From: Escherichia phage UFV-AREG1
Reading direction: 5' to 3' (one strand)
Length of the DNA: 64,000 bases
Sequence record: KX009778
The number at the start of each line of letters is the position of its first letter. Position 1 is the stretch's first letter. Positions 2,762-5,423 of this stretch are shown here, in pieces. The position numbers and the translations under genes were made by a program. The notes below the pieces were generated by a model. That model was given only the letters and a program-made list of their open reading frames with translations. It did not search any database and was not told the origin of the DNA.

Positions 2762-2797
2762 CTTATTTCCTGTTTTAATTCGTGGTTTTAATATACT

Positions 2798-2805
2798 TAT
2801 TTATA
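2798..2805 (-). promoter_or_regulatory. T4 late promoter core TATAAATA (minus strand)
   Basis: Exact TATAAATA on the minus strand about 37 nt upstream of ATG at 2761. Confidence 0.5.
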
Positions 2806-2836
2806 CTAAAAAGCCCCAACCTTTCGGTCGGGGCTA
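2806..2836 (-). terminator. Intrinsic terminator hairpin (minus strand)
   Basis: gccccaacc-tttc-ggtcggggc stem-loop followed by UUUUU on the minus strand; near-identical copy at 2251..2280. Confidence 0.55.
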
Positions 2837-2839
2837 AGC

Positions 2840-3122
2840 CTTGCGGCAACCTTGTCGGGGTTCCACCTGCTAAGGCAAGTGTTTGTACGAAACGCCGGGA
2901 TTCGAACCCGGTTATTAAGCAGTTGACGCTACTCAATATTTTTAAAAGGCCATATCTCGACCATATCCGAACGTTCCGTCAAAAACGCTACTCGGCTTAT
3001 GGCAAAGATATTTCCTCGAATCGATAATTCGGTGCGCCGTTTCTGCTGTGATGTAAGAGGGCATCAATAAACGCAAAGATTATTAACGCAATTCCTTACT
3101 CAGGGAACATCAGTCCGACGAC
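2840..3122 (-). ncRNA. Candidate structured small RNA region (tRNA-like T-arm; possible stable-RNA locus or tRNA remnant)
   Basis: About 280 bp with no credible ORF on either strand; minus strand carries CCGGGTTCGAATCCCGG (canonical T-stem/loop) at 2895..2911 with a possible acceptor pairing CGGAACG/CGTTTCG, but no complete cloverleaf; several local hairpins. Confidence 0.3.
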
Positions 3123-3677
3123 TTACCGGTAGCGACCCGGTTTCTCATTTGGTATTTCAAATTGTGTAGATTTAGTATCTAATTTTTTAACTATGGAACT
3201 TATGTCATGAAAGAAAAACCATTCGCCATTTATATGGTCCTGATTATAAATGCTGTGCATATATTTTTCAAGTTCTACTGCATCCTGGGAATATCTAAAT
3301 GATACTATTTTAAAACTTTTAAACGGTGAAAATGTATTTGCTGTTATAACTCTAACATCAGGTTCTATACTTCTTCCTATTTTATAATAATTAGGATTTG
3401 TAGTATCTACCATTATGTATACGAAAGCCTGTCGATAGCTTTTTTCTATATCAAATTCATCTTTAAATTTCAAAAGATTTAGGGCGGCAGTCCTACAAAA
3501 TACTTTCCATTTTGACAAGCGTTTAGCTTTAGTCATAGAAAAGAATTTTTTCTTATCTGTTATTTTAAGAAAAGCAACATTTTCAATTAGTTCTTGTGTT
3601 ATTTCAAAATTACCATGGTATATTAATCCAGCTTTTATAGCCAAATTAATTTGGTCCCAGTCTACATCACTTCTCAT
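3123..3677 (-). CDS. T5orf172 / GIY-YIG-like domain protein, 184 aa
   Basis: C-terminal half carries FVYIMVDTTNPNYYKIGRS ... R ... E..E..MH ... NGEWFFF, matching the GIY-YIG-like T5orf172 signature; N-terminal 85 aa unassigned. Confidence 0.6.
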   Translation of the reverse strand: MRSDVDWDQINLAIKAGLIYHGNFEITQELIENVAFLKITDKKKFFSMTKAKRLSKWKVFCRTAALNLLKFKDEFDIEKSYRQAFVYIMVDTTNPNYYKIGRSIEPDVRVITANTFSPFKSFKIVSFRYSQDAVELEKYMHSIYNQDHINGEWFFFHDISSIVKKLDTKSTQFEIPNEKPGRYR

Positions 3678-3698: not shown

Positions 3699-3775
3699 TG
3701 GCCAGGGTGAAAGGATTCTAACCTTTAACCTGCGGTTTAGAGGACCGCTACTCTATACAATTGAGTTACACCCCG
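3699..3775 (-). tRNA. tRNA-Arg (anticodon TCT), CCA encoded
   Basis: Manual cloverleaf: acceptor CGGGGTG/CACCCTG, D-stem ACTC/GAGT, anticodon stem GCGGT/ACCGC with loop CCTCTAA, T-arm AAAGG-TTAGAAT-CCTTT. Confidence 0.8.
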
Positions 3776-3901
3776 TAATTAGTTCACAGCAATACCTACT
3801 CCAACAATCAAGATGTCTTCACACGAAATTAAGAGAAAAGTGATCAGTTCAACCCTTATAATCGCGTCAAGTAGATATTAATGTGACAACTGTCACAAGT
3901 T

Positions 3902-3976
3902 TGGCGGACATGCATGGATTCGAACCATGGACCAATTGATTAACAGTCAACTGCTCTACCACTGAGCTACACATCC
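3902..3976 (-). tRNA. tRNA-Asn (anticodon GTT), CCA encoded
   Basis: Manual cloverleaf: acceptor GGATGTG/CATGTCC, D-arm GCTC-AGTGGTA-GAGC, anticodon loop CTGTTAA, T-arm CATGG-TTCGAAT-CCATG. Confidence 0.75.
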
Positions 3977-3980
3977 AAAT

Positions 3981-4067
3981 TGGTGGGGAGTGATGGAGTC
4001 GAACCACCCGAGTCGCAATGACAATGGATTTACAGTCCACACCGCTACCTCTACGGGATAACTCCCC
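3981..4067 (-). tRNA. tRNA-Tyr (anticodon GTA), type II with long variable arm, CCA encoded
   Basis: Acceptor GGGGAGT/ACTCCCC, anticodon stem GTGGA/TCCAT with loop CTGTAAA, long variable arm, T-arm GGTGG-TTCGACT-CCATC; D-arm pairing is irregular. Confidence 0.6.
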
Positions 4068-4076
4068 AAATTAATT

Positions 4077-4153
4077 TGGTGACCCAGACCAGATTTGAAC
4101 TGGTAACCTTTCCCTTATGAGGGGACTGCTGCTAACCATTGAGCTACAGGGCC
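4077..4153 (-). tRNA. tRNA with CAT anticodon (Ile-lysidine type or elongator Met), CCA encoded
   Basis: T-arm ACCAG-TTCAAAT-CTGGT, anticodon loop CTCATAA; acceptor stem has one mismatch and one G-U. Confidence 0.6.
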
Positions 4154-4154
4154 T

Positions 4155-4230
4155 TGGTGCTGATTGACGGAATCGAACCGCCGACATCCTCATTACAAGT
4201 GAGGTGCTCTACCTACTGAGCTAAATCAGC
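4155..4230 (-). tRNA. tRNA-Thr (anticodon TGT), CCA encoded
   Basis: Acceptor GCTGATT/AATCAGC, D-arm GCTC-AGTAGGTA-GAGC, anticodon stem CCTCA/TGAGG with loop CTTGTAA, T-arm GGCGG-TTCGATT-CCGTC. Confidence 0.8.
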
Positions 4231-4232
4231 AA

Positions 4233-4319
4233 CGGAGGCGATAGGATTTGAACCTATGAGTCGCCGGAGCGACTGCCGGTTTTCAAGACCGGTGCATTAA
4301 ACCACTCTGCCACGCCTCC
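4233..4319 (-). tRNA. tRNA-Ser (anticodon TGA), type II
   Basis: Acceptor GGAGGCG/CGCCTCC, anticodon stem CCGGT/ACCGG with loop CTTGAAA, long variable arm, T-arm ATAGG-TTCAAAT-CCTAT; no encoded CCA. Confidence 0.75.
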
Positions 4320-4321
4320 AG

Positions 4322-4395
4322 TCTCCATACAAGGATTTGAACCTTGGACCTCCTGATCCCAAATCAGGCGCTCTACCAAACTGAGCTACACGGAG
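4322..4395 (-). tRNA. tRNA-Pro (anticodon TGG)
   Basis: Acceptor CTCCGTG/TATGGAG (two G-U), D-arm GCTC-AGTTTGGTA-GAGC, anticodon stem CCTGA/TCAGG with loop TTTGGGA, T-arm CAAGG-TTCAAAT-CCTTG. Confidence 0.75.
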
Positions 4396-4405
4396 TAAAT
4401 TAAAT

Positions 4406-4479
<74 letters not shown>

Positions 4480-4485
4480 AAACTT

Positions 4486-4572
4486 TGGTACGAGAAGTGG
4501 GACTCGAACCCACAAGGAAATCATTCCGCAGCATTTTAAGTGCTGTGCCTTTACCAATTTGACCATTCTCGC
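4486..4572 (-). tRNA. tRNA-Leu (anticodon TAA), type II, CCA encoded
   Basis: Acceptor GCGAGAA/TTCTCGT, anticodon stem CAGCA/TGCTG with loop CTTAAAA, long variable arm, T-arm TGTGG-GTTCGAGTC-CCACT region. Confidence 0.75.
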
Positions 4573-4573
4573 G

Positions 4574-4646
4574 CTGGGAATAAAGGACTCGAACCTTTGC
4601 ATCTAGCAGTCAAAGTGCTATGCCTTACCAACTTGGCTAATTCCCA
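4574..4646 (-). tRNA. tRNA-Gln (anticodon TTG)
   Basis: Acceptor TGGGAAT/ATTCCCA, anticodon stem TAGCA/TGCTA with loop CTTTGAC, T-arm AAAGG-TTCGAGT-CCTTT. Confidence 0.75.
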
Positions 4647-4743: not shown

Positions 4744-5031
4744 TTACCATTTATGATAATACATATTTACAATGCATTCAAGACCTAAAGGATTCTTGAA
4801 AATATCATATTCAAGAGGACCTTTTTCTGTTTCAATAAAGAAATCAAAATTTACTGTATTAAATTTACGGTCTTCCTTCACTAATTTAACTTGAGAAGAT
4901 GAACGGTCAACATAAACCTTTTCAACTTCAAAACATGTTAAAATGCCATAATCATCGATCAAGGCTTTAGCTGCTTCTTGATCATATTTATATCCATTTT
5001 CAATTGACGATACTTTAGCATAAAGAATCAT
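4744..5031 (-). CDS. Hypothetical protein, 95 aa (ip-locus accessory gene)
   Basis: ORF co-oriented and tightly packed downstream of the 5034..5423 gene; no recognisable motif. Confidence 0.5.
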   Translation of the reverse strand: MILYAKVSSIENGYKYDQEAAKALIDDYGILTCFEVEKVYVDRSSSQVKLVKEDRKFNTVNFDFFIETEKGPLEYDIFKNPLGLECIVNMYYHKW

Positions 5032-5033
5032 TA

Positions 5034-5423
5034 TCAGCCTTCATCAACAATAGTATGAGTGTGGGCATTTACAATTTGCCACCAATCAAAGCGATTATAA
5101 CCATACATCGGTTTGTTTTCATTTTCTTTGATAATATCACGGAGTTCATCTTCGGTAGCGGCTTTCGCGATTAAATCAGCATATCCACCACGAGGATAAT
5201 AATTATCACCTGCAAAAAGTAAAAAGTTCGGTTTAATATTATTGAACTCTTCAAGAGTAATAACTTTTCCTGTCGGTTGAACAATCTCTACATATTTATA
5301 TCCTAATTTTTGAGCAGCATCTACTGCTTCAAGCAAAGTATCATGAGCCCATCCAATTTGACAACCTGGCTTTTCAGATGGATTAGCCTGATAATCCGCG
5401 TACACTTTATACATTCTATTCAC
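5034..5423 (-). CDS. Hypothetical protein, 129 aa (ip-locus accessory gene)
   Basis: ORF overlapping the upstream small membrane-protein gene by 8 nt (likely coupled translation); no recognisable motif. Confidence 0.5.
   Translation of the reverse strand: MNRMYKVYADYQANPSEKPGCQIGWAHDTLLEAVDAAQKLGYKYVEIVQPTGKVITLEEFNNIKPNFLLFAGDNYYPRGGYADLIAKAATEDELRDIIKENENKPMYGYNRFDWWQIVNAHTHTIVDEG

Follow-up and report, generated by a model that had tools for sequence, protein, structure and literature searches.

The window analysed here is a 64,000-nt stretch of the genome of Escherichia phage UFV-AREG1 (sequence record KX009778), a T4-type phage (Tequatrovirus), and its minus strand carries ten tRNA genes (4646..3699, called by ARAGORN). 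Further downstream on that strand lies a region of about 360 bp (2762-3122) that a first-pass annotation, made from the letters only, had described as highly structured, lacking a credible open reading frame (ORF) and possibly encoding stable small RNAs of the kind linked to the tRNA cluster of T4. The last of these suggestions matches the public record, as T4 (NC_000866) and T2L (AJ880101) carry misc_RNA features, rnaD and rnaC, with which the region can be aligned base by base. The rnaD (species 2 RNA) homologue is 118 nt long (3148..3031; minus strand, as are all RNA features below) and is identical to T4 rnaD at 118 of 119 positions (NC_000866 71171..71053). The rnaC (species 1 RNA) homologue follows at 3024..2886 by the T4 convention, where 136 of 139 positions are identical (NC_000866 71046..70908), or at 3023..2884 by the annotation convention of T2L, which starts at position +1 of the acceptor stem, stops three bases beyond the discriminator and gives 140 nt. 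The homology to the annotated rnaC of T4 and T2 extends over the full length, and 744 phage records match it.

The position of rnaC is also that of its T4 counterpart, on the strand of the tRNA cluster, at the 3' end of the cluster and with a terminator next to it, and the sequence homologous to rnaD lies directly upstream, separated from rnaC by a 6-7-nt spacer. The region very probably comprises the two small stable RNAs of T4-type phages, rnaD and rnaC, which form the closing part of the tRNA transcription unit. The genes themselves are a rediscovery, both having stood in the T4 record for decades. The interval first proposed does enclose rnaC, its 3' trailer and the terminator, but its upper boundary was misplaced: the RNA genes extend to 3148, which takes them 26 nt into the end of an ORF at 3123..3677. 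A search with 501 bases around the finding returned Escherichia phage REP2 as the best match (99.8%) and 804 phage records in all, nearly all of them from T4-like phages of Escherichia, Shigella or Yersinia. The order of rnaD, short spacer, rnaC, hairpins and terminator at the 3' end of the tRNA cluster is shared with both T4 and T2L. Two differences from T4 were noted: T4 rnaD starts one base past tRNA-Arg, whereas a 184-aa ORF intervenes in the UFV-AREG1 window, as in phage VR7, and the T4 cluster has eight tRNAs against ten in the window.

T4 expresses rnaC and rnaD, northern blots have detected them, and published work gives their function as unknown (PMC9697503; PMC3014915), a description that persists in the literature to 2025 (2010, 2022, 2025). 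According to earlier work summarised in the SegB paper, the eight tRNAs and the species I and II RNAs of T4 all derive from one primary transcript of about 1.75 kb, which covers the complete cluster and stops past the species I gene (PMC2330249). A transcriptome study of 2022 placed both RNAs in the late class, with northern confirmation using an RNAC probe, and the blot shows a discrete, stable RNA (PMC9697503), for which public annotation gives a size of about 140 nt.

Fold and conservation of rnaC

For comparison, a set of 34 distinct rnaC homologues was assembled from about 14 genera of Tevenvirinae: Tequatrovirus, Mosigvirus, Dhakavirus, Gaprivervirus, Kagamiyamavirus, Karamvirus, Moonvirus, Kanagawavirus, Winklervirus, Marfavirus, Gelderlandvirus and Mosugukvirus, together with unclassified relatives. 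All 34 are 139-143 nt long. A covariance model built from 26 of them recognises exactly one copy per phage locus, with scores of 105-160 bits, and a single copy in the window (146.5 bits); true tRNAs give weak full-length matches to this model, at 14-25 bits. Pair statistics were taken from a model-based alignment of 31 distinct sequences (A7) and from an independent MAFFT alignment (A3). From these sequences, rnaC is supported as a conserved, co-varying cloverleaf, in which an acceptor stem, a T arm and an anticodon-like hairpin are joined by an arm of about 60 nt that stands in for the D arm.

In T4 numbering, where the window coordinate equals 3025 minus the position, the acceptor stem occupies positions 2-8/131-137 and pairs CGAUUCG (3017..3023) with CGUUUCG (2888..2894), after which come the discriminator U138 (2887) and ACA (2886..2884). 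The 7-nt spacer GAAUUAU (3024..3030) forms the leader of rnaC, and the U at its position -1 is present in 31 of the 34 homologues. Next to the acceptor stem, a three-pair helix (9-11/76-78; AGG at 3016..3014 with CCU at 2949..2947) closes the long arm (13-73; 2952..3012), which has 61 nt in the window and 61-63 nt in all 26 sequences folded, and whose apical loop is UUGACG (43-48; 2982..2977). Between the long arm and the 3' strand of its closing helix lies a GG (74-75; 2950..2951) that resembles G18/G19 of tRNA and would make the elbow contact with the T loop. An A/U-rich, single-stranded linker of 10 nt (79-88; 2946..2937) leads to the anticodon-like hairpin, with an 8-bp stem (89-96/103-110; 2915..2936) and the 6-nt loop CGUCAA (97-102; 2928..2923), and then to the T arm CCGGG-UUCGAAU-CCCGG (114-118/126-130; 2895..2911). 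This T arm is the one first recognised as CCGGG-TTCGAAT-CCCGG on the minus strand (2911..2895). A duplicated motif noted at the same time, GAGTAGCGT, is likewise present, at 2993..2985 and 2934..2926, and each copy is the 5' half of one of the two hairpins whose loops are complementary.

The minimum-free-energy fold of the single rnaC sequence from the window is the same cloverleaf as that of the comparative model. It reaches -50.5 kcal/mol (z = -4.36 against shuffled sequence), and the trailer with its terminator folds equally far from shuffled sequence (z = -4.30), so that the description of these parts as highly structured is borne out. Among the 31 aligned sequences, standard pairs fill 90.2% of the cells, compared with 32-48% after a shift of the 3' partners by 1-3 columns, and two-sided changes occur at 28 of the 47 pairs; none of 500 shuffles reached the observed values. 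The MAFFT alignment gives 89.0% paired and two-sided changes at 28 of 48 pairs. All five pairs of the apical stem of the long arm show two-sided changes and are paired throughout (100%), as do all eight pairs of the anticodon-like stem with respect to two-sided changes, and the helix closing the long arm is 100% paired with one compensatory change. The T arm is 99% paired, and the middle pair of its stem varies by genus (G-C, U-A, A-U or U-G). Position 3:70 of the acceptor stem is G-C in 21 sequences, A-U in nine and G-U in one (phage PM2), while two tandem U.U mismatches in the same stem are kept in 30 of 31 and are U-A pairs in PM2. The discriminator is U in all 34 homologues, and the encoded 3' end is ACA in 27 and CCA in seven. 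Compensatory changes in every helix, together with a nearly constant length across about 14 genera, show selection on the whole of rnaC.

Conservation and co-variation across related phages, which the first-pass annotation had named as the check on its helices, were thus found for the rnaC cloverleaf but not for the acceptor stem that it had proposed. No covariation is seen for that stem, CGGAACG with CGTTTCG; 19 of 31 sequences leave one of its pairs open, and its score is reached by all 500 shuffles. CGGAACG is the 3' half of the apical hairpin of the long arm.

Two tertiary contacts are suggested by the same alignments. The apical loop of the long arm and the anticodon-like loop are perfectly complementary over 6 bp, and they read UUGACG/CGUCAA in 27 sequences and UUGGCG/CGCCAA in six, all of the Marfavirus group, whereas PM2 has kept four of these pairs. 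The loops probably form a 6-bp kissing interaction. In the elbow, GG occurs with a T loop starting UUC in 30 sequences and CG with a T loop starting UGC in four, with no mixed cases. The CG/UGC variant belongs to Winklervirus and the CIP9 group of Kanagawavirus, where it would turn the G18/U55 contact into a C-G pair and retain G19-C56, and at least six independent isolates carry it in identical form, which excludes a sequencing error. A tRNA-like elbow between the GG and the T loop is likewise probable for rnaC. Inspection by eye for a k-turn in the asymmetric loop of the long arm gave no fit to the consensus, and this reading was set aside.

Likeness to tRNAs and possible roles of rnaC

Measured against a canonical tRNA, rnaC has a 7-bp acceptor stem formed from both ends of the RNA and an adjoining 5-bp T stem with the 7-nt loop UUCGAAU, both of which covary. 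Its discriminator precedes NCA, its GG co-varies with position 55 of the T loop, its four arms meet at one junction, and it occupies places in tRNA arrays. It differs in having an arm of 61-63 nt instead of a D arm with a 3-4-bp stem and a short loop, a linker of 10 nt instead of the single nucleotide 26, tandem U.U mismatches in the acceptor stem and mostly an ACA end. In addition, its anticodon-like loop has 6 nt and is predicted to pair with another loop, whereas the loop of a tRNA has 7 nt and is free to read a codon. The first-pass annotation was right that no complete tRNA is encoded here: ARAGORN makes no call in 2762..3148, RF00005 (tRNA) gives no match to the stretch at E up to 10, and the best hit in the Rfam scan at that threshold is a tRNA-Sec at chance level (16.6 bits, E = 7.5).

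Other tRNA-like RNAs share some of these traits. Like transfer-messenger RNA (tmRNA), rnaC is non-decoding, both of its ends form the acceptor stem beside a T arm, and its processing is presumably tRNA-like. However, rnaC has neither a tag reading frame nor a pseudoknot ring, lacks the conserved G3.U70 and is 140 nt long, whereas tmRNA exceeds 250 nt; ARAGORN calls no tmRNA and Rfam gives no tmRNA match, and this assignment was set aside. The bacterial Y-RNA-like YrlA (RF02553) is, like rnaC, a stable non-coding RNA that mimics the upper half of a tRNA. In YrlA, however, the tRNA-like part lies inside the molecule and the two ends build the Ro-binding stem, whereas the ends of rnaC form the acceptor stem. 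This assignment was also rejected, as RF02553 has no match in 2884..3148 and the weak YrlA matches sit on true tRNAs.

How rnaC may be made is suggested by its position in other phages. In Karamvirus, Kagamiyamavirus and Winklervirus it has a tRNA gene on either side, at distances of about 4-8 nt; in Marfavirus it comes next after tRNA-Met, and in Kanagawavirus PEi20 the nearest tRNA is about 630 nt away. Bacterial RNase P prefers U at position -1. The slots in tRNA arrays, the U at -1 and the ends annotated in T2L all fit excision by the tRNA-processing machinery. Thus rnaC would be cut from the polycistronic precursor in the fashion of a tRNA, its 5' end by RNase P and its 3' end by exonuclease trimming, and would fold as an L-shaped look-alike of a tRNA. 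Old studies reportedly describe the sequencing of species 1 RNA, the processing of its precursor by RNase P and RNase E/F, and self-cleavage of the precursor; these reports are not used as evidence here. With its anticodon loop locked and its end mostly ACA, rnaC would stand outside decoding, and the conserved U.U mismatches and the ACA end would also bar it from translation.

What selection has kept in rnaC is the stack of acceptor stem and T arm, the elbow and the single-stranded 3' end. The surfaces that tRNA-binding proteins use are retained while the decoding parts are absent or locked, and this points to a tRNA mimic that may occupy or divert a tRNA-binding factor, a tentative proposal that we infer from sequence and fold. 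The candidate factor would be a host defence nuclease, or an enzyme that processes or modifies tRNA. Two further observations concern the place of the locus in the life of the phage. Escherichia phage AV115 (Mosigvirus) carries a natural deletion of rnaD and most of rnaC (L074 651..760), so at least one natural isolate can do without the locus. In an evolution experiment published in 2025, the T4-like phage BW1 was adapted to a semi-permissive host, and every adapted line carried one convergent single-nucleotide polymorphism (SNP) within rnaD (PMC12685909). The loss in AV115 and the convergent SNP give the profile of an accessory, host-dependent function. A fuller version of the proposal, in which rnaC is a dedicated structural tRNA decoy that either counters a tRNA-targeting defence or titrates a tRNA enzyme late in infection, and rnaD is a host-range modifier of the locus, is more speculative and must be considered rather doubtful.

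Several explanations of the locus compete with the tRNA mimic, and we regard all of them as less likely. One may argue that the structured block acts in cis, guiding the cleavage of the tRNA precursor by RNase P or RNase E and protecting its 3' end, with the RNAs as by-products. In T4-type phages the block is indeed the last before the terminator, has extra hairpins after it and is co-transcribed with the tRNAs (PMC2330249). Nevertheless, such a module would have to be reconciled with the position of rnaC in Karamvirus, Kagamiyamavirus and Winklervirus, where it lies in mid-array between tRNA-Trp or tRNA-Phe and the next tRNA, and with the distant copy in PEi20. Kissing loops and an elbow across about 14 genera also far exceed the needs of a 3' protective hairpin, and the RNA accumulates as a stable species (PMC9697503). 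A role in cis is therefore unlikely.

It is also quite unlikely that rnaC and rnaD are trans-acting regulators that pair with phage or host mRNAs. Some papers name them 'small regulatory RNAs', without data (PMC9697503), and single-stranded or invariant segments are available in the linker of rnaC and in the 5' and 3' modules of rnaD. However, the best-conserved loops of rnaC pair and co-vary with each other, leaving no free seeds, and the linker is low in information and variable in length. Moreover, these RNAs have no known target, and T4 has, according to a review, no characterised trans-acting RNA (PMC3014915).

A decaying tRNA pseudogene or an intron-interrupted tRNA, both raised in the first-pass annotation, would account for the perfect T arm and the acceptor stem, and tRNAs of 95 nt have been called inside rnaC in phages PG7, COW86c and G9062. 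As for decay, the acceptor stem, T arm and elbow are kept, as the word degenerate had implied, but within an RNA that is conserved and co-varying, with compensatory changes in every helix and a length held at 139-143 nt across about 14 genera. As for an intron, no Rfam intron family matches, the extra sequence of about 60 nt is a conserved, co-varying arm at the D position and not an insertion in the anticodon loop, that loop has 6 nt and is paired, and the annotated stable RNA of T4 and T2L stays at 139-140 nt. Both versions are very unlikely. Small proteins are hardly tenable as the product of the stretch: mechanical ORFs of 44, 53 and 81 aa exist, contrary to the strict wording of the first pass, and 'hypothetical protein' entries appear in many GenBank records, but the frames start with TTG or GTG, are broken by 1-3-nt indels among homologues and carry substitutions that preserve base pairs rather than codons.

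Returning to the two stable RNAs and the tRNA mimic, some points tell against what is proposed here. When folded by itself, rnaD is no better than shuffled sequence (z = -1.43). The model-based alignment of rnaC was fitted to the model and so favours the structure, although the independent MAFFT alignment gives nearly equal numbers. The co-variation of the kissing loops may reflect one evolutionary event in the Marfavirus clade, and that of the elbow one or two events, which is why both contacts are rated probable and not proven. The T4 and T2L records differ by 1-2 nt at both ends of rnaC, so that its mature 3' end may be ...UA, ...UACA or a rebuilt ...UCCA. Finally, the role of rnaC as a decoy is inference only.

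Compared with the literature, from which the papers of the 1970s are excluded in this comparison, the addition made here is a concrete, testable, tRNA-shaped fold of rnaC in which the D arm is extended, kissing loops act as a lock and the elbow co-varies. If the decoy role is true, rnaC would join the phage tRNAs in the phage answer to tRNA-directed host defences, and a function would finally be assigned to RNAs known since the 1970s.

rnaD and the surroundings of the two genes

The second RNA has a narrower range, being restricted to Escherichia-type T4-like phages. A comparison of nine phages shows that about 45 nt at the 5' end and about 30 nt at the 3' end of rnaD are invariant, whereas the centre is variable and is replaced in T2-type phages. 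Folding of the aligned sequences with RNAalifold yields a 5' hairpin, ACCGG-GUCGCUA-CCGGU (3125..3141), whose closing A-U pair becomes G-C in phage mar005P1, one compensatory change, and a conserved closing stem, GUCGUCG with CGGCG(C)AC. tRNA-like features were sought in rnaD, and its 3' end does read ...GGCGCACC(A), but a T arm and a matching 5' acceptor strand are absent; the base after ...GCACC is A in T4 and G in UFV-AREG1. This makes rnaD a companion RNA confined to one lineage, in which a 5' hairpin and a closing stem are conserved.

Upstream of rnaD, between it and tRNA-Arg, lies the 184-aa ORF with a MUG113/T5orf172 domain (3123..3677, minus strand), whose stop codon falls in the conserved 5' hairpin of rnaD. 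Phage VR7 has the same T5orf172 ORF, and T2L (trna.2), RB68 and mar005P1 have a different ORF with an identical end point. The mobile ORFs upstream differ among phages and all terminate within the rnaD 5' hairpin, and the site just upstream of rnaD has the look of a hot spot for mobile cassettes. The 184-aa ORF contains, about 90 nt ahead of rnaD, a near-consensus match to a sigma-70-type promoter (3271..3243, minus strand; TTGAAA, 17-nt spacer, TATAAT, 11/12), which on the strength of its sequence could give rnaD and rnaC a transcript of their own.

Downstream of rnaC, the minimum-free-energy fold predicts three small hairpins in the 3' trailer (2881..2864, 2862..2848 and 2847..2838), a trailer that T4 and T2L conserve. 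At 2860..2847 lies CCCCGACAAGGTTG, the incomplete copy of the terminator stem reported earlier. The intrinsic terminator of the tRNA-rnaD-rnaC unit (2807..2835, terminator scan), also recognised in the first pass, consists of a 10-bp stem with seven G-C pairs and a GAAA loop (2835..2812), followed by a T run.

Distribution and annotation of rnaC in other genomes

BLAST-level and pattern searches find rnaC only in Tevenvirinae that infect Enterobacterales. Two pattern scans of IMG/VR returned only Tevenvirinae copies and unrelated GC-rich chance matches, a metagenome pattern scan added two Marfavirus-like copies, and a pattern scan of GTDB bacterial genomes gave four matches, all of them chance and unrecognised by the covariance model. 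A 31.5-bit match to the model in Citrobacter phage Moon (L030 1071-1188) was rejected, as it consists of two adjacent true tRNAs. One of the GC-rich sequences, in IMG/VR contig 3300033075_001020 (L048 1845..1969), has a T arm and an acceptor-like end and scores 18 bits against the rnaC model; it is unrelated to rnaC and may belong to the 3' part of a tmRNA or to some other tRNA-like RNA.

The deletion in AV115 runs from the T loop of a tRNA to the T loop of rnaC, and the sequence suggests recombination between the two T loops as its origin. What is left there is an odd 'tRNA-Asn' fused through the T loop to the last 30 nt or so of rnaC.

There is no entry for rnaC in Rfam 15, and many public phage genomes carry spurious proteins or odd tRNAs over the gene. 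Annotators or ARAGORN have placed false tRNAs of 95 nt ('tRNA-Met', 'tRNA-Phe', 'tRNA-OTHER') over it in PG7, COW86c and G9062, and false annotations were located at L008 746..840 (PG7), L058 473..568 (COW86c) and L054 416..553 (Klebsiella phage EI). In many GenBank records, the features covering rnaC are 'hypothetical protein' coding sequences.

Some minor features of the UFV-AREG1 window concern the tRNA cluster itself. The spacer between tRNA-Asn and tRNA-Arg is 126 nt long (3776..3901, minus strand), compared with 4 nt in T2L, and contains the hairpin GTGACA-GT-TGTCAC. Upstream of the cluster are two late-promoter motifs, TATAAATA (4992..4985 and 5300..5293, minus strand), which fit the reports of late accumulation of the T4 small RNAs; the motif occurs 23 times in the window, where about nine occurrences are expected by chance. 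Another copy lies at 2805..2798, ahead of the next gene.

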